Shown here: positions 1 to 9,249 of the stretch, piece by piece
Numbering within the stretch: position 1 is the first letter of the stretch
How the letters are laid out: the number at the start of each line of letters is the position of its first letter
Assembly (NCBI GenBank): GCA_963849325.1
Contig: CAWKHF010000012.1
Location: 832,001 to 896,000, forward strand
Source: an uncultured Planctomycetota bacterium
Lineage (GTDB): Bacteria; Planctomycetota; Planctomycetia; Gemmatales; Gemmataceae
Length of the DNA stretch: 64,000 nucleotides
Direction: 5' to 3'
The notes under the pieces: model-generated
Database searches by the model: none
Seen by the model: the letters and a program-made list of their open reading frames with translations, nothing else
Told to the model about the DNA's origin: nothing
Made by a program: the position numbers and the translations under genes

Positions 1-297
1 ATTTTTCCTTGAGGATAGGGGCGACGTCGTTGATGAAGCTGACCGGCCCTTTCGGCGCCGCGGCTTGCGCGGGCTGAGCAGCCAGCAGCATCAACATGGC
101 CAGCACCGCACCCAGCGCGGCGCACAGAACGCAGAAGCAACGATGAGGTCGATACATGAGCGGCAAGCTCCGAGGTAGGAGTCCAGGCAAGGAAATTCGG
201 CGGGTCCAACGGCACCATTATAGCGGGCCGACCCGCTGAGTGCGAGAAAAAAATGTCCCGGTTTCGCCGACGGCGGCAAACCACGCAGCCCTCGGCG

Positions 298-2257: not shown

Positions 2258-2383
2258 CAAATTTCTTGGGAGTCTTACGCTGCGGTGCCGGTACGGAAGG
2301 CCTTACCTTGCTGACTCCGCTGGCTAATCTCCCTTTGATCCTTTTGGAGTTTACAGCGCAGCCTGATGCGCGGAGAAGCGAAT

Positions 2384-5300
2384 ATGATGATTTCCAAACG
2401 GCCGTCCATTGCCCGATCCACTTGTCGCCGAGGGTCCGTCCTGCCCTTGCTGGCCCTTGCCCTCGTGGCCCTGATTGGCTGTGTGGCCCTGGCTGTCGAC
2501 GTGGCGATAATGACCATCGCCAAATCGCAGATCCAAAACGCCGCCGACGTAGCCGCGCTCACCGCCGCGCGCACGCTGACCGGAAATTCGGCAAGCAATT
2601 ATAATGAGAGCTCCGCCACGACGAACGCGCAGAACGCCGCCAGTTACAACCACGTCTTGGGTCAGTCGATTCAAACGTCGCAGCTCCAGCTATCCTACGG
2701 CACCTACGACTACGACCAGACCGCGCAGACCTTCAACGCCAATTTCCCACCGACGAGCGGCATGCCGCTGACCGCCGTTTCCGCGACCGTCACCTCGAGC
2801 AGTTTATCGGCCGCCTTTAGCACCGTCTTCGGAATCCAATTTCTCCCCAATGTCACCGCCACGGCCACGGCGGTCCATCGGCCGCGCGACATCGCCCTGG
2901 TCATGGATCTGTCCGGCTCGATGCGCATGGGCACCTGCCTCGGCTACGACTTTTATACCAGCTCACGCACCACGAACAACCCCGATACCCTCTACCCGAC
3001 ATTCGGACAGTATTCGTCCGGCAGCGCCGGCATGCAAGGCCCCAGCACCAATCAAACGTCCAGCTTCGATAACTACACGATCTCCCCGAGTAATACCACC
3101 GCTGCCAATTCCTCGTATTCCTTGACCTATGTGAACAACTTCTATCAAAACGCGGCCTATGCGAACACCTTGGTCCGCGCATTTGATTCGTATACCAGCA
3201 CGGACGGCGGGGTTACCTGGACCGCCCCCACTTCGGGGAGTCCGCAGCTGCCTCCCACCACGTACGCCTCGAAGCCGGGGGGAGACGTGCCTCTTTACAA
3301 GAATGGCAGCACGACGACTTATGCCACGAATGTCAACGACGTTGTGAACGGGACCACGCGGAACAAGTGGTGGGAGCTGGACGGTTACTCCGGTTGCACG
3401 AACGGTTCGTTCAACAATGCGGACCTGGGGACCAGTACCTACGCGAGCGGTTCCTTTAACGCTTATACGCAGGGTCCCGCCTACTACGGCAAGACCTTCT
3501 TCACCTGGCCCCCCGACCCGCGCCAGCCACTGACCACGGCGAACAACTCCACCCAGATCAATCAGTTCTTGCAAGATTTCGGCTACAGCACCAGCACGGA
3601 TTTCGCCAATGCCGCCTTCACGACCACGCTGGCGCAGAAAATATCGTCAACGAATAAAACCTCTATCTCGATCAATTCCGCGACACCTTTCCCGGTAAGC
3701 GGTCTTCCGACAACGTCGTTTCGTATTCTTGTCGGTTCGGAAGTCATGCTGGTAACGGCCGCATCGGGACCAGGGAACAAGACCTGGACCGTACAAAGGG
3801 GCATGGACGGGACCACAGCATCAACATACCCTGCGAACACGACGACGGTCAGTCTGTTGACCGGGCCACCCCTGTACGGGATCTATGGAGTCACCACGAC
3901 TTCGGGCAGCCAAAACTGGCCCTGGCCCAATGACAGTGGCACCACACTCAGCAATTACTTGACCAGCAAGGTATACGTGCCCGTTTCTTCCGGCGCTACC
4001 GCCCGTTTGCTCCAAACCACGGATGCGGTTTATCAGAAGATCATGCGCCTTTACAACTGGAACTACGTGGTCGATAACTACAACTCGGCGGGGAGCGGGA
4101 GCAGTTACCCCGGCACCACTCCCTGCGATTGGCGCATGCGCTTCTTCGGCACCAACGACAATACCAAGCTATTCAACTCTTCCGGGTTGTTGAACTTGCC
4201 GAGCAGTTCCACCTACACGATTAATTACAATGAGATCCTGCGCTGGATCGCCACCACGCCGAACCCCTTCCCGCAGCAGATGCGGGCGGGCCGCGTTAAG
4301 TTTTATGGATCCATCCCGACCCAGATCACGGGCAGTTGGCCCAGCTACGGCAGTACGGACCAGCAGTTCTGGAAAGAATTCATTGACTACGCGCTCGGCC
4401 TCCGGCAAACGAGCGCGACCAGCTACCAGGACATCAGCGCCATGGCCGGCTACGGCAGCGATTTCACCTGGGGAACTACGAAAACCAATTCTCCTCCTTC
4501 TGCCACGCAATACATGAATTATTCGGACAATCCTGCCCGCCCGCGGCTCCGCTTCTGGTTCGGTCCCATGAACATGGTCGATTATCTGCATAATTACAAT
4601 ATGGAGGAAAACGTCTCCGGCTATTATTTCCTTCAGCCAGGGGATACTTACGAGGCTCCGGTCTACACGGCCAAACAGGCCTACCTGGCCTCGATCAGCA
4701 CGATGCAGACCAACCATCCCAACGACTGGTTCACTACCGTTTGTTACAGCTGGCCTCGCGGTTCGTCGAATGGGACCGTGGCATCGAATATGGGTCAGGG
4801 GCGCTTCAATTGCGTGCGGTCCCCGCTCGGGCCAAATTACAGCTATGCCAGCGCCGCTCTCGTTTTCCCATTCTCCACCATCAACGCCGATGGTTCCGCC
4901 AATAGTACCGAGATCACTCCCTACGATACCGATCCTGCCACGAGCCAGGTTCCTTCGGCCAACTTCGTGGACACACCGCGCGCAGACGGAGATACCTGCT
5001 TCGCCATGTCGCTCATGCTCGCTTACAACCAGTTCGCCACCACGTCGCCCTCGGATGGCACCTTACGCTCCTTCGTCACGTCCACCCCCATCACTTTCCC
5101 GACGGGCATGGCGGGAGGAATGGGGCGCAAAGGAGCCCAGAAGGTCATCATCTTTGAAACGGATGGCCTGGCGAATACCTCCGCGACGGCCTCTCTGGTG
5201 AACATGGGATCGTACAAGTATTACAAGATCCGCTATGACATGAATAAGCCGAGCTCCAGCGAATACCCGACGGTCGGCGTATCCGTCATCAATGACTCCA

Positions 5301-5599
5301 ATGTCTTGAATCAGATTAATACCCTGGTCCAACAGCTCGCGAGCGATTACGGCACTTCGAGGAACCCCTTTCGGTTGTACGCCGTCGGATTCGGCCCTGT
5401 GTTCCAGGGTCCAAACGCCAGCTCGGCGTCGCAAACATTGCAAAACATGCAGTATTATGCCGGCACTCAGAGCAGTCCTTCCACAGCCTTGCCGCCCGCT
5501 CAAATCATTACGGGAACGGACTCCCAGATGTCGGCGAACATGAACACCACCTTCACGAACATCTTACAAAATGGAGTGCAAATCGCCCTGACCAAGTGA
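2384..5599 (+). CDS. Large TadG-like pilus-associated protein with split vWA domain
   Basis: N-terminal RRGSVL..LAVD..QNAADVAALTAAR Tad motif; MIDAS-like DLSGSM and distal KVIIFETDG; S/T/N-rich. Confidence 0.8.
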   Translation: MMISKRPSIARSTCRRGSVLPLLALALVALIGCVALAVDVAIMTIAKSQIQNAADVAALTAARTLTGNSASNYNESSATTNAQNAASYNHVLGQSIQTSQLQLSYGTYDYDQTAQTFNANFPPTSGMPLTAVSATVTSSSLSAAFSTVFGIQFLPNVTATATAVHRPRDIALVMDLSGSMRMGTCLGYDFYTSSRTTNNPDTLYPTFGQYSSGSAGMQGPSTNQTSSFDNYTISPSNTTAANSSYSLTYVNNFYQNAAYANTLVRAFDSYTSTDGGVTWTAPTSGSPQLPPTTYASKPGGDVPLYKNGSTTTYATNVNDVVNGTTRNKWWELDGYSGCTNGSFNNADLGTSTYASGSFNAYTQGPAYYGKTFFTWPPDPRQPLTTANNSTQINQFLQDFGYSTSTDFANAAFTTTLAQKISSTNKTSISINSATPFPVSGLPTTSFRILVGSEVMLVTAASGPGNKTWTVQRGMDGTTASTYPANTTTVSLLTGPPLYGIYGVTTTSGSQNWPWPNDSGTTLSNYLTSKVYVPVSSGATARLLQTTDAVYQKIMRLYNWNYVVDNYNSAGSGSSYPGTTPCDWRMRFFGTNDNTKLFNSSGLLNLPSSSTYTINYNEILRWIATTPNPFPQQMRAGRVKFYGSIPTQITGSWPSYGSTDQQFWKEFIDYALGLRQTSATSYQDISAMAGYGSDFTWGTTKTNSPPSATQYMNYSDNPARPRLRFWFGPMNMVDYLHNYNMEENVSGYYFLQPGDTYEAPVYTAKQAYLASISTMQTNHPNDWFTTVCYSWPRGSSNGTVASNMGQGRFNCVRSPLGPNYSYASAALVFPFSTINADGSANSTEITPYDTDPATSQVPSANFVDTPRADGDTCFAMSLMLAYNQFATTSPSDGTLRSFVTSTPITFPTGMAGGMGRKGAQKVIIFETDGLANTSATASLVNMGSYKYYKIRYDMNKPSSSEYPTVGVSVINDSNVLNQINTLVQQLASDYGTSRNPFRLYAVGFGPVFQGPNASSASQTLQNMQYYAGTQSSPSTALPPAQIITGTDSQMSANMNTTFTNILQNGVQIALTK

Positions 5600-5631
5600 C
5601 GCGGGTCGTGATGACCGTGCCGAATCGCTCA

Positions 5632-6405
5632 TCACGGCTTCGTGGAGACGTGGCCGTCGATCGCCTGCAACACCTCGTCCGGCGAGAGCCGGGCGATCAC
5701 CTCGGGGGAACGATACAGCCAGCGCACGGTGCCGTCCTGGTCCACGAGGATCGTCGTTGGCGCGTCGGTATCGCCCCCATCGGGTGCCGAATGCGGATGA
5801 ATGACTCCCGCCGCCTCGGACAGACCGCGCTGCTCATCGGCGAGCACGAGCAGGTGCGGGAAGTCCGCCTGTGTCTTCCCGGCGTCCTCGAGTCCTTCCA
5901 CGGAAACCACCAGGACGCGGACGTTCCGCTGGGCGAAGTCTTCGTGCCGACGTTCGAGCTGACCTAGCTCGATCATGCAAAAGGGTCACCAGCGGCCGCG
6001 GAAGAAGACCAGCACGCTGTTCTGCTCGCCGATCAGGTTTTGCTGCGTGAACGGGGTGCCGTCCGCCCGCGCCGACGCGAATGGGGGAAAGGGCTGCCCA
6101 ACAACGATCGGCCCTGTGTACGCCGGCAGTCTCGCCGCTAGCAGGAACGTCCACGCGGCGCCGGCAAGCAGCGTCACCAAGACGAGGGCAAGTACACGCC
6201 AGACGGAACGCCTCTGCCAGAGCGAGACGACCACGAAAACCAGGCCGACGGTTGCCATGATCGGCACGTACCAGGGTGCCGTCAGGCGCTGCGCCTGGAT
6301 TTGAAGGACGTAGCCGATTACACCCAGGGCGGCCAAAGTGAGGCCCAGGGCCAGGAAGAGGCGGCCGGGCGAGCGACGCGGTGCGACAGCGGATGAAGTA
6401 GTCAT
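5632..6405 (-). CDS. Membrane-anchored AhpC/TSA (peroxiredoxin-like) protein, probable selenoprotein with UxxC
   Basis: ORFs 5986-6405 and 5632-5976 are in frame across TGA(5988-5986): FFRGRW-TGA-PFC-MIELGQL; downstream PTTILVDQDGTVRW. Confidence 0.85.
5954..5972 (-). promoter_or_regulatory. Candidate bacterial SECIS hairpin
   Basis: TCGAGCT-AGGTC-AGCTCGA begins 13 nt after the in-frame TGA. Confidence 0.6.
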
Positions 6406-6476
6406 GTCGTCATTCTATGACAGGGGCGGTTGGCGAGGGAGGCCGCACATCCGCTGCGTCCCAGGGTGGAAGGAAG

Positions 6477-6548
6477 AGTGTCCGGCGGGAGTCGCACCCG
6501 CCTATCCGACGCGGCAGGTCGGTGCCTCGGCTGCTCGGCCACGGACAC
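6477..6548 (-). tRNA. tRNA-Gly(GCC), array
   Basis: Acceptor GTGTCCG/CGGACAC, anticodon arm CCGAC-CTGCCGC-GTCGG; variant T-loop TGCGACT. Confidence 0.8.
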
Positions 6549-6553
6549 AAGAG

Positions 6554-6623
6554 CAAGGACGGAAGGAGTCGAACCCTCGGCGCCTGTTTTGGAGGCAGGC
6601 TGCTCACCCAGGAGCACGCCCTT
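6554..6623 (-). tRNA. tRNA-Trp(CCA), array
   Basis: Anticodon loop CTCCAAA, T-arm GAGGG-TTCGACT-CCTTC. Confidence 0.8.
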
Positions 6624-6633
6624 GTCGAACCAG

Positions 6634-6706
6634 CTGCCCCGGCAGGACTCGAACCTGCAACCGTCTCGTTAACAGCGAGCCGCTCTACCGTTTGAGCTAC
6701 AAGGCA
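6634..6706 (-). tRNA. tRNA-Asn(GTT), array
   Basis: TAGCTCAAACGGTAGAGC D-arm, loop CTGTTAA, GCAGG-TTCGAGT-CCTGC. Confidence 0.92.
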
Positions 6707-6726
6707 AGCAGACAGAAATGCCTCAG

Positions 6727-6799
6727 AGACGCCGGCAGGAGTCGAACCTGCTTCGATGTCGGGTTGCGGCCGACCGCCTGGCCGTCCGGCCCCGGCGTC
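6727..6799 (-). tRNA. tRNA-Cys(GCA), array
   Basis: GACGCCG/CGGCGTC acceptor, GTCGG-CCGCAAC-CCGAC, U73 discriminator. Confidence 0.82.
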
Positions 6800-6811
6800 A
6801 TAACAGACAAG

Positions 6812-6884
6812 GGCCGGCGGTGGGACTCGAACCCACTTGGTCCGCGTTACGAAGGCGGTGCCCGGCCCGTCGAGCATCGCCGGC
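6812..6884 (-). tRNA. tRNA-Thr(CGT), array
   Basis: GCCGGCG/CGCCGGC acceptor, loop TTCGTAA, GTGGG-TTCGAGT-CCCAC. Confidence 0.8.
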
Positions 6885-6892
6885 TTTGGTCA

Positions 6893-6963
6893 GCAGCCAG
6901 TGCTGGTGTCGAGCCAACTGGACCGAGGTTCAGAGCCTCCGTCCCCTGCCGAGGGCCTGGCTG
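6893..6963 (-). tRNA. Degenerate tRNA-Gln(CTG), array
   Basis: CAGCCAG/CTGGCTG acceptor, GAGG-CTCTGAA-CCTC, short D-arm, T-loop CTCGACA. Confidence 0.6.
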
Positions 6964-6972
6964 ACGTGCGAG

Positions 6973-7045
6973 GGTGGCCGGCGGGAGTCGAACCCGCACA
7001 ACCCCGGTTCACAGCCGGGTCTCGCTGCCGCTTGAGTTCGGCCAC
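6973..7045 (-). tRNA. tRNA-His(GTG), array
   Basis: GTGGCCG/CGGCCAC, CCCGG-CTGTGAA-CCGGG, C73. Confidence 0.88.
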
Positions 7046-7047
7046 AG

Positions 7048-7119
7048 TGCTTCAACCTGGAATCGAACCAGGAACTCGGCCTTCGCAGGACCGCGTGATG
7101 TCCCTTTCACCATCGAAGC
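7048..7119 (-). tRNA. tRNA-Arg(GCG), array
   Basis: CGGTC-CTGCGAA-GGCCG anticodon arm, CCTGG-TTCGATT-CCAGG. Confidence 0.85.
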
Positions 7120-7126
7120 AACACAG

Positions 7127-7198
7127 TACCCCGGCCAGGAATCGAACCTGGACCTGCTCCTTCGGAGGGAGCCATGATGTCCCTTTCACCACCAGGGC
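7127..7198 (-). tRNA. tRNA-Arg(CCG), array
   Basis: GCTCC-CTCCGAA-GGAGC, CCAGG-TTCGATT-CCTGG. Confidence 0.88.
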
Positions 7199-7210
7199 AA
7201 CACGAACCAG

Positions 7211-7293
7211 TGACCAGGGAGGGACTTGAACCCTCACGCCGCGGTGGGCACGGTCTTCTGAGGACCGCGTGTCTGCCATTCCACCACCTGGCC
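7211..7293 (-). tRNA. tRNA-Leu(CAG), array
   Basis: GGTGGAATGGCAGACAC D-arm, loop CTCAGAA, long variable arm. Confidence 0.92.
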
Positions 7294-7305
7294 ATTTACC
7301 AACAG

Positions 7306-7378
7306 TGGACCGTGGAGGGAGTTGAACCCTCATTTGCCGGGTGCAAGCCGACCGTCTTCCCCGTTAGACGACACGCCC
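7306..7378 (-). tRNA. tRNA-Ala(TGC), array
   Basis: GTCGG-CTTGCAC-CCGGC, G3:U70-compatible acceptor with one bulge. Confidence 0.78.
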
Positions 7379-7392
7379 GGGAGAAAAAGCAG

Positions 7393-7465
7393 TGGCCCCG
7401 GTGGGGATCGAACCCACATCGCCCTGTTTAAGAGACAGGTGCTCCGCCAATTGAGCTACAAGGCC
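7393..7465 (-). tRNA. tRNA-Lys(CTT), array
   Basis: TAGCTCAATTGGCGGAGC, CCTGT-CTCTTAA-ACAGG. Confidence 0.92.
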
Positions 7466-7475
7466 ATTCGGGCAG

Positions 7476-7555
7476 CGTGTCGGGCAGGAGTTGAACCTGC
7501 ACAGCGAATGCGGGTGGGTTACAGCCACTTGGGCTCGCCAGTGCCCAGCCGACAC
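7476..7555 (-). tRNA. tRNA-Tyr(GTA), first gene of the array
   Basis: GTGG-CTGTAAC-CCAC, long variable arm, GCAGG-TTCAACT-CCTGC. Confidence 0.85.
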
Positions 7556-7574
7556 GTCTGGTCCGTACATCTTG

Positions 7575-7602
7575 TAGACGTAGGCACCCGGCCGGAGGTT
7601 CA
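7575..7602 (-). promoter_or_regulatory. ECF-sigma-type promoter upstream of the tRNA array
   Basis: TGAACC-N16-CGTCTA about 20 nt before tRNA-Tyr. Confidence 0.6.
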
Positions 7603-7822
7603 CGGATCCAAGCGAGATTTTTCGAGAAGCAACGGGGGCCACATGGGCAAAGTGGCAAAGCGCGTGCGTCTCCATCGGATGTACCGGATAAGCCTGTTGC
7701 GCCGGAGAGGAGTCAATTCCGTCCTTCCTCCATGCCGATAAAGAGTGATGGGCCGCGCGATCTGCCCGCATTGGTCCCGAGACGGGGAAGGCGCGGAAAG
7801 CATCGGCTCGGGAGGGAACGTC

Positions 7823-9249
7823 ATGCTGTTCTGCTCGTTGGAATTCCTGTTCTTCTTCAGCGCCATTCTGCTCGTCTACTGGCTCATCCCCGGCAAGACG
7901 GCTCGCATCTGGTTGCTGCTGGTGGCCAGTTTCTGCTTCTACGCGGCGTGGAACACCTGGCTGGCCTTGCTCATCAGCGTCACGACGGTCATGGATTATT
8001 TCCTCGCCCTGGGCATCGACCGCGGCACCTCGGAGGTCCGGCGCAAGCTGCTCCTGGCCGTCAGTCTCGTGGTCAACCTCGGCGTGTTGTGCTATTTCAA
8101 GTACGCCAACTTCTTTCTCGATTCGCTATCCGAGATTCTGCACGCGCTCGGCTCGTCGGCATCGCTGCCGCTGCTGGAAGTGATCCTTCCGGTCGGTATC
8201 TCCTTCTACACCTTCGAGGCCATCAATTACACCGTGGACGTCTACCGTCGCAAGGCGCCCGCGGAGCGGAACCTGGGGCACTTCATGCTGTTCATCCTGT
8301 TCTTTCCTCATCTGGTGGCCGGGCCGATCGTCCGCGCCCGCGACTTTTTGCCGCAGATCAAGCGGGCCAAGCGCTTCAGCTGGCCGCGCATGCAGCTGGG
8401 GCGCAGATCTTCCTCATGGGGCTGTTCAAGAAGTTGGCCATCGCCGATCGCATGGCCCTCTACGTCGATCCGGTGTTCCACGACCCGTTGTCGTTCCACT
8501 CGAAAGCGGTGTGGTGGGCGGTGCTGGCCTACGCCCTGCAAATTTACTGCGACTTCTCCGGCTACACCGACATGGCCATCGGCACGGCGCACATGCTCGG
8601 CTACAAACTGGCCGAGAACTTCAACATCCCGTACATCTCGGCCAACGTCTCGGAGTTCTGGCGGCGCTGGCACATCTCGCTGTCGAGTTGGCTGCGCGAT
8701 TATCTGTTCATCCCACTGGGCGGCAGTCGCGGCGGCACCTGGAAGACCAACCGCAACCTGCTGATCACGATGACGCTGGGCGGCCTGTGGCACGGAGCGA
8801 GCTGGACGTTCGTCTTCTGGGGCGTGCTGCACGGCCTGCTGCTGATCGGGCACAAAGCGTTCCAGGGATTTTGCACGAAACGGCCGATGCTCGAGCGCGT
8901 ACTGCGCTCGGCGCCGGGGACGTTGCTGCGCATGGCGCTGACGTTTGCCAGTGTGTGCGTCGGTTGGGTCTTCTTCCGGGCGACAACCTTCGCCATCGCC
9001 GCCGGTGTGCTGCGACGCCTGGTCAGCTTCACTCGTGCCGGGGCGCCGACGCCGATGCCGATCACCGGCTTCGTCCTGACAATCGTGCTGGTGGTGCTGT
9101 GCCATTTGGTTCGCCGCTTCGACCTGTGGCGGCGATGGCAGCCGAGCCTGCCGGCCCCCGTGCTCGGCTTCAGCTACGCCGTGGCGGTGACGCTGGCGCT
9201 GATGCTCGCCCCATCGGGGACCAAGCCGTTCATCTACTTCCAGTTCTGA
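7823..9249 (+). CDS. MBOAT O-acyltransferase (AlgI/PatA-like), one frameshift near 8400
   Basis: LPVGISFYTF, GPIVR, YCDFSGYTDMAIG, EFWRRWHISLSSWLRDY, GLWHGA, FIYFQF. Confidence 0.92.

Follow-up and report, generated by a model that had tools for sequence, protein, structure and literature searches.

A planctomycete gene annotated in two halves reads as one membrane-anchored UxxC selenoprotein of the AhpC/TSA type

When the 64,000-nucleotide stretch analysed here (the window; positions 832,001 to 896,000 of contig CAWKHF010000012.1, assembly GCA_963849325.1, from an uncultured Gemmataceae bacterium of the Planctomycetota) is read with genetic code table 11, its minus strand carries two successive open reading frames (ORFs) of 139 amino acids (5986..6405) and 114 amino acids (5632..5976). 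The question raised by this locus is whether these are two genes, or the halves of a single gene in which an in-frame TGA stands for selenocysteine (Sec, U). The locus is a real selenoprotein gene, and we give a probability of about 0.8 to the full reading, in which the minus strand from 6405 to 5632 is one gene for a 257-residue selenoprotein, with UGA140 recoded by means of a selenocysteine insertion sequence (SECIS), a three-helix membrane anchor and an outward-facing UxxC thiol:disulfide oxidoreductase domain; the mechanism beyond Sec insertion is inferred.

The whole gene (5632..6405, minus strand) consists of 257 codons and a terminal TGA (5634..5632), starts with an ATG at 6405..6403, and is interrupted only by the TGA of codon 140 (5986..5988), the first position of the UxxC motif. 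The local DNA, TTC TTC CGC GGC CGC TGG TGA CCC TTT TGC ATG, corresponds to FFRGRW-U-PFC-M; the codon of the resolving or partner cysteine, Cys143 (TGC, 5977..5979), was read directly, as was that of Sec. An initial annotation of this DNA had these sequence details right and left the strand unstated. The N-terminus (MTTSS..APRR.PGR) is common to relatives of the selenoprotein. The query of the Pfam, NCBIfam, protein-catalogue, family-genome and PDB searches (P0001) has one extra C-terminal residue derived from the terminal TGA, and P0224 is the clean 257-residue form.

In public protein catalogues the closest relatives (55-71% identity) are present as halves only: all of the 12 aligned N-terminal halves end in ...F-F-R-G-(R/H)-W, and the four aligned C-terminal halves start with M-(I/L)-E-L-G-Q-L-E. 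Full-length homologues at 38-51% identity read RGRW-C-P-x-C-M. Among the best 150 hits of an exhaustive search of 50%-identity representatives, 82 stop exactly at query residue 139 and 25 start at residues 142-145, which bears out the suspicion of the initial annotation that gene calling splits the gene. When 151 genomes of the same family were searched in six frames, 54 gave a match, and an in-frame TGA is present in 51 of the 61 matches listed (49 genomes); the other ten are five fragments that end short of residue 140, four distant uninspected matches (29-31% identity) and one with TGG. At the loci inspected one by one, TGA occupies the homologous codon in 30 of 30 fetched family loci (L022-L051, 45-75% identity), in both of two distant family loci (L137 and L138, 28-33%) and in nine of nine loci from three other families of the phylum (29-41%), i.e., in 41 of 41 Sec-form loci down to 28% identity. 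At nine Cys-form orthologous loci (metagenome-assembled genomes of Planctomycetia and Pirellulales, 41-47% identity over the best segment) the site reads TGC (six) or TGT (three), and these orthologues have RGRWCPFCM where the selenoprotein has U for the first Cys. That TGA stands where an RG.WCPxC motif has its first Cys, as initially read, agrees with these data, and so does the U/C pairing in an alignment of homologues that had been suggested as a check.

The reading frame also continues past the TGA into the redox half, as had been proposed, and two Pfam domains span the site: AhpC-TSA at residues 102-229 (3.1e-18; 66.3 bits, cut-off 26) and Redoxin at residues 102-235 (2.2e-15). The codon of Cys143 is TGC in 29 of the 30 family loci and TGT in one, and since this single change is synonymous, the codon is translated. 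If TGA140 were a true stop, the locus would hold either a gene for a 139-aa membrane protein next to one for a truncated redoxin of 114 aa, or a single gene killed by a nonsense mutation; the table 11 reading and the treatment of the relatives by public gene callers agree with this, and the gene's own terminator is likewise TGA. Yet a nonsense mutation would not last at one codon in all 41 loci, the domain crosses the site, the orthologues carry Cys there, and the C-terminal piece alone lacks the entire redox motif. Moreover, the 9 nt (three codons) from the TGA to the next ATG stay in frame in the 30 family loci with the Cys codon kept, a stretch that a two-gene model would leave untranslated. 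We regard a true stop as extremely improbable. By this comparison of loci, UGA140 is shown to be a conserved sense codon.

An erroneous base call, TGA for TGC, would be conceivable in an assembly with clear errors (rpoB, rpoC, selA and selB are all split over frames, see below) and with no reads found for the site. The errors seen are indels and not substitutions, however, the same TGA recurs in the remaining 40 loci inspected, which come from other genomes and in many cases from assemblies of many contigs, and the source genome has the SECIS hairpin as well, so that the chance of such an error is close to nil. Judged from the aligned loci, neither a stop, nor a pseudogene, nor a base-call error can account for the pattern of TGA and Cys.

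Downstream of the UGA, folding and comparison of loci identified a SECIS-like hairpin (5954..5972, minus strand) with the arms UCGAGCU (5972..5966) and AGCUCGA (5960..5954) and the loop AGGUC (5965..5961). It has 7 bp and a 5-nt loop with GGU, and starts 13 nt past the UGA; its 76-nt context folds with -31.2 kcal/mol (z = -2.63). The 7-bp hairpin with a G-containing loop that had been noted after the TGA is therefore present, and a SECIS-like structure was found in all 41 Sec loci, with a stem of 6-8 bp, a loop of 3-5 nt and a loop start 23-27 nt from the U of UGA; GU occurs in the loops of 36 loci, and in five the loop is GGC or GGGCG. In an alignment of 35 Sec sequences of the same register (the family sequences and distant Sec forms) 91.0% of the hairpin cells are paired, compared with 21-41% in slid controls, and changes on both sides occur in four of the eight pairs (10 cells), a level reached by none of 500 shuffles. 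The six Sec sequences outside this alignment have different stems (ACUGCAA/UUGCAGU, GCUCCAA/UUGGRGC, CUCCGA/UCGGAG) with GGU or GGUC loops, placed one codon further downstream.

At codons +5 to +11 of the Sec forms synonymous positions are frozen (GAG 30/30, GGT 22/25, CTC 29/30, GAA 28/30), and GGT is kept in the hairpin although GGC is favoured elsewhere, whereas the codons flanking the hairpin and the corresponding codons of the Cys forms vary freely. Folding of the hairpin yields -10.8 +/- 1.1 kcal/mol for 30 Sec forms versus -4.9 +/- 2.9 kcal/mol for the nine Cys forms. The stem-loop is thus shown, as far as sequence and folding go, to lie where a bacterial SECIS element should lie and to have its form. 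The SECIS of formate dehydrogenase genes (E. coli fdhF type) is likewise a stem-loop within the coding sequence that follows directly 3' of the UGA and has a GGU apical loop about 20 nt downstream. In the source genome (G000) fdhA, the gene of the formate dehydrogenase alpha subunit (C10:540688-543804; L132, L133), has an in-frame TGA at C10:541153 (ARI-U-HSAS) and after it a hairpin of 7 bp with the loop GGUCU, a design of UGA plus GGU-loop hairpin that matches E. coli fdhF. GGU lies at +24..26 in the gene studied here (+27..29 in some relatives) and at +21..23 in fdhA. Compared with the fdhF-type SECIS, the hairpin, for which SelB binding is predicted, has no evident bulged U.

Several observations weigh against a selenoprotein at this locus, or against a SECIS function of the hairpin. 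One relative (L136, G044:C923) reads TGG (Trp) at the Sec codon, within the last 35 bases of a contig and with a GGC instead of a GGU loop, which could be either a genuine loss or an error at the end of the contig. The TGA of the source genome is read from the assembly, and the selenoprotein is deduced from DNA. No public sequencing run with the locus was found: the best of the 24 listed holds 6% of the sampled words, probably from tRNA genes, and none of those listed is an RNA holder. Among the 30 closest sequences the hairpin is mostly invariant (92.1% of the cells pair) with a compensatory change in only one of eight pairs, and the covariation signal derives from the more distant homologues. 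The stem also codes for the conserved peptide IELGQLE, and the conservation of the hairpin is therefore partly at the protein level. The hairpin of one Cys form (L058) is comparably stable (-12.0 kcal/mol), but has an AGC loop. Finally, an Rfam scan of 5000..8000 (E <= 10) returned only tRNAs and noise, and no family on the hairpin.

The genome was also searched for the machinery of Sec insertion, whose absence the initial annotation had named as a ground for rejecting a selenoprotein. The source genome (14 contigs, 8.16 Mb, 65% G+C, 84.69% complete) contains selA, selB, selC and selD: the tRNA-Sec scores 72 bits in Rfam (cut-off 47) and was identified by ARAGORN as tRNA-SeC with anticodon TCA, selD (386.9 bits) is one open frame without an internal stop, and selB (313.7 bits) and selA (286.7 bits) are adjacent genes. 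In the assembly, the coding sequence of selA falls into three frames and that of selB into two (C12:1294158-1297495), which alone would mean a dead Sec pathway. If selA and selB were pseudogenes of a pathway in decay in this strain, the full-length product would be lost here, and three frame changes in ~3.3 kb of selB-selA are what such decay would leave. In the same assembly, however, rpoB is broken into four pieces and rpoC is spread over three frames or more (C1:334967-343005), at a similar density of breaks, and because these genes, which cannot be dead, are broken likewise, the frameshifts of selA and selB are judged, not proven, to be assembly error. The assembly seems to have roughly one indel error per 1-1.5 kb in rpoB, rpoC, selA and selB, and any frameshift 'pseudogene' in this genome should therefore be distrusted.

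Further arguments against a decaying pathway are the low completeness despite only 14 contigs, and the fact that selD, tRNA-Sec, the target gene and fdhA around its TGA are open on either side of the sites examined. Elsewhere in the family a split selA clusters in assemblies of few contigs and low completeness (e.g., G048, G049, G100, G110, G113, G120, G144), a combination that points to indel errors of long-read assembly. A decay of the pathway is in our estimate very unlikely. selA was found in 140 of the 151 family genomes, and therefore the whole family uses Sec. For the same reason co-occurrence of the TGA form with selA (47 of 49 genomes) is uninformative; the two TGA-form genomes without selA are 95% (G038) and 68% (G051) complete.

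The encoded protein has hydropathy segments at residues 12-38, 41-65 and 66-93. AlphaFold2, run on an alignment of 24 sequences, predicted helices at residues 13-37, 46-64 and 68-90 followed by a beta-alpha domain (mean predicted local distance difference test score, pLDDT, 91.8; predicted template modelling score, pTM, 0.84). Of the 24 aligned sequences, 13 were Sec-form rows (P0224 and 12 read-through relatives) and 11 were non-Sec full-length sequences (10 with CxxC, and P0007, in which the whole CxxC motif is lost). By this prediction residues 13-90 are shown as three membrane helices and residues ~100-250 as a thioredoxin/peroxiredoxin fold, in line with the three N-terminal transmembrane helices that had been proposed to precede the redox domain. 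Helix 1 is encoded at 6295..6369, helix 2 at 6214..6270, after a loop with the invariant P44-W45-x-x-P48, and helix 3 at 6136..6204, with the invariant R70 at its predicted cytoplasmic start. The redox domain (residues 102-235, 5701..6102; Pfam, PDB alignment, AlphaFold2 and Foldseek) contains W139-U140-P-F-C143 and the A215-P216-T217-T218 loop.

The name 'peroxiredoxin-like', used in the initial annotation, is apt for the fold but not for the catalytic residues. A genuine peroxidase, i.e., a membrane-anchored selenoperoxiredoxin instead of a thiol:disulfide oxidoreductase, is suggested by AhpC/TSA as the top Pfam family, by the best PDB sequence matches (AhpC/1-Cys peroxiredoxin, 1.1e-07), and by Foldseek, in which the ~40 best matches listed are all peroxiredoxins or thiol peroxidases (best for Bcp4, 3hjp: E = 2.2e-11, TM-score 0.87 on the target); selenols are, moreover, fast with peroxides. 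With true peroxiredoxins as the closest solved folds of the predicted model, a peroxidase activity is conceivable, which counts against an oxidoreductase. The overall fold is shared with peroxiredoxins (Bcp4 3hjp, AhpC2 5ovq, Prx6), but the Pro and Thr of their P-x3-T-x2-C signature and their catalytic Arg are all substituted in the selenoprotein: in a HMMER alignment to 1-Cys peroxiredoxin, R136 stands at the Pro, U140 at the Thr, C143 at the peroxidatic Cys, and P216, nearly invariant in the A-P-T-T loop, at the catalytic Arg, so that neither P-x3-T/S-x2-C nor the conserved Arg of catalytic peroxiredoxins is present. The NCBIfam peroxiredoxin models reach only 17-25 bits against cut-offs of 211-456. 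Trp-Cys-x-x-Cys together with a Pro-Thr loop is a hallmark of the thioredoxin/TlpA type, reportedly set out by Copley et al. 2004 and in the CDD description of PRX_like2. From the aligned residues the active site is classed as thioredoxin-type and not peroxidase-type, 'peroxiredoxin-like' describes the fold only, and we consider a peroxidase unlikely.

Basic residues (K+R) number two in residues 1-14 (plus R15), three in the loop 63-70, one in the loop 36-44 and none in residues 93-110, which places about six on the predicted inner side (N-terminus and helix 2-3 turn) and one or two on the outer side. By the positive-inside rule this charge bias indicates a cytoplasmic N-terminus and a redox domain outside, and the domain is probably extracytoplasmic. 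The opposite arrangement, with the N-terminus outside and the domain in the cytoplasm, or a domain embedded by the helices at the inner leaflet, gains some room from the statistical nature of the rule and from a topology based on hydropathy and AlphaFold2 only. Besides the charge bias, anchored CxxC proteins of the same fold (TlpA, ResA, CcmG) are extracytoplasmic, and an inner location seems rather improbable.

For the thiol:disulfide oxidoreductase that we prefer, the following course may be proposed. The SECIS stem-loop would bind SelB-GTP-Sec-tRNA(Sec) and recode UGA140, and the product would be inserted with its N-terminus in the cytoplasm and its UxxC domain at the periplasmic face of the cytoplasmic membrane. 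U140 takes the place of the N-terminal, nucleophilic Cys in a motif of the Trp-Cys-x-x-Cys type; its selenolate would attack a disulfide or sulfenate of the substrate, and C143 would resolve the intermediate, giving a selenenylsulfide. Re-reduction of the motif might plausibly proceed via a membrane electron carrier of the CcdA/DsbD type; the genome has one DsbD_TM match (72.7 bits, C12:94076-94600), far from the selenoprotein gene, and to name such a carrier as the electron source is only a guess. It counts against this scheme that topology, substrate and reductant are all deduced, and that no conserved neighbour gene indicates a pathway.

Which known proteins come closest? By definition, and as judged from its sequence (PF00578, 66.3 bits; U140-P-F-C143), the protein belongs to the Prx-like thiol:disulfide oxidoreductase selenoproteins, which are defined as pfam00578 with UxxC or UxxU and 'predicted with high confidence' in two accounts (PMC13188914 Table 1; PMC9312934) and were counted in deltaproteobacteria (PMC1794560). 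Reviews of prokaryotic selenoproteins define families by domain and Sec motif; the string 'planctomycet' is absent from the available text of both selenoprotein reviews. The likeness to these proteins extends to the Sec in first position of UxxC, the Cys homologues and the SECIS just downstream; the differences, in a comparison by definition only, are the planctomycete (Gemmataceae-like) lineage and the N-terminal three-helix module with its invariant residues. The kind of selenoprotein is already described, and the membrane-anchored member is new; no account of this membrane-anchored family was found in a limited literature collection on Gemmata selenoproteins and on bacterial transmembrane or periplasmic UxxC proteins. 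In a planctomycete genome study of 2016, the selenoprotein candidates already included some named 'peroxiredoxin' and 'AhpC/TSA' that were annotated as two genes and had a SECIS (PMC4807772, Table S9). These are likewise planctomycete, with the same Pfam-type description, the same two-gene artefact and Cys homologues in other planctomycetes, while the host there is a marine alga-associated isolate; the table gives IMG gene numbers, and the comparison is by description only.

In the NCBIfam scan no curated model reached its cut-off, and the best was the SelL-related redox protein NF040769 (Prx-like2 group), which shares a CxxC-type motif on a Prx-like fold and matches over residues 105-200; with 55.2 bits against a cut-off of 120, the selenoprotein is not a member. 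SelL proper has UxxU. TlpA, ResA and CcmG (DsbE) share with the selenoprotein a membrane anchor and an extracytoplasmic thioredoxin-fold domain with a W-C-x-x-C-type motif and a Pro-Thr loop, and by analogy they are likely the appropriate working model. Unlike it, they carry Cys in place of Sec, and their anchor is a single helix or a lipoprotein signal, not three helices; the selenoprotein scores 30.1 bits with the ResA model (cut-off 170) and 20.4 bits with that of DsbE (cut-off 123.15), and is therefore a member of neither. A survey of neighbours found no cytochrome c maturation or copper genes near the selenoprotein gene.

A quick maximum-likelihood tree was built from 40 Sec and 16 Cys forms with the Sec/Cys column masked (L042 was excluded for its short flank). 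Sec forms hold all deep branches and the 16 Cys forms are nested in two or three groups; three changes between Sec and Cys are needed, of which well-supported branches force only one. Because the tree is rooted at the midpoint only, the direction of the changes is not established. Of the 16 columns that are invariant in the family alignment, six (P44, W45, P48, R70, P94, Y96) lie in the membrane module, which hints, from conservation, that the module is more than an anchor. A more far-reaching proposal, which we offer as speculative, is that the three helices are no passive anchor but form, together with the UxxC domain, a membrane-integral selenoenzyme at the outer face of the cytoplasmic membrane that would, e.g., reduce oxidised membrane or envelope components, with Sec as the ancestral state and the Cys forms as later replacements. 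As a separate observation, in one protein of 347 aa (P0005) the redox domain has Ser in place of Sec (RGRW-S-PYC) and follows an N-terminal protein-kinase domain rather than the membrane helices.

The main value of the finding lies in the correction of a widespread annotation error, and in a candidate for biochemical study. A large planctomycete family is stored in public catalogues almost wholly as two meaningless halves, one N-terminal half at NCBI being a 'hypothetical protein' of a Gemmataceae bacterium. Because no curated NCBIfam model reaches its cut-off, pipelines that depend on NCBIfam are expected to go on splitting the gene; a family model with a flagged Sec position would mend many records together. 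With this protein, the selenoproteome of soil and freshwater planctomycetes gains a UxxC member that is membrane-anchored and probably extracytoplasmic, and whose natural Sec and Cys versions allow experimental comparison; knowledge of Sec decoding is unchanged.

Just upstream of the gene, and likewise on the minus strand, positions 6476..7555 hold a closely packed array of 12 tRNA genes (Gly, Trp, Asn, Cys, Thr, His, Arg, Arg, Leu, Ala, Lys, Tyr). The initial annotation had described the gene as co-directional with this tRNA array and 71 bp downstream of it; relative orientation and order are correct, but the gap to the ATG is 70 nt (6406..6475), and the proximity is incidental, because no array lies within ~1.5 kb at any of 28 relatives' loci (one has a tRNA-Met and a tmRNA). 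Within ~1.5 kb at 30 loci no conserved neighbour was found, the only recurring frames being both gene halves and a shadow frame antisense to them, and a promoter/terminator scan of 5400..6700 found no promoter-like site or other useful signal. On the plus strand a 1077-aa protein (2366..5599), convergent with the selenoprotein gene, matches Pfam Tad (Flp pilus-assembly TadE/G-like; 4.8e-07) at its N-terminus, and its remainder is without a Pfam match.

The source genome was also scanned de novo for genes with a TGA plus hairpin, which gave 23 candidates; the scan is crude and missed the gene described here, whose G+C content at third codon positions (GC3) downstream (0.73) is below the threshold of 0.78. 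A second candidate UxxC selenoprotein (L148, C5:286499-287047) is a small AhpC-TSA/Thioredoxin_8 protein with the motif DFWASY-U-GPC, a TGA at C5:286712 and a hairpin downstream. Three frames (L150-L152; C7:255508, C7:475911, C7:288535) share a Cys-TGA-(N/T)-N motif after K-P-(I/V)-L-L-(W/F), where no Pfam domain matches, and may represent a selenoprotein family of the C-U type, or chance. Another candidate selenoprotein (L149, C13:52961-54577) combines a thioredoxin-like domain with NHL repeats and reads DFWTLC-U-INC around a TGA at C13:54307.

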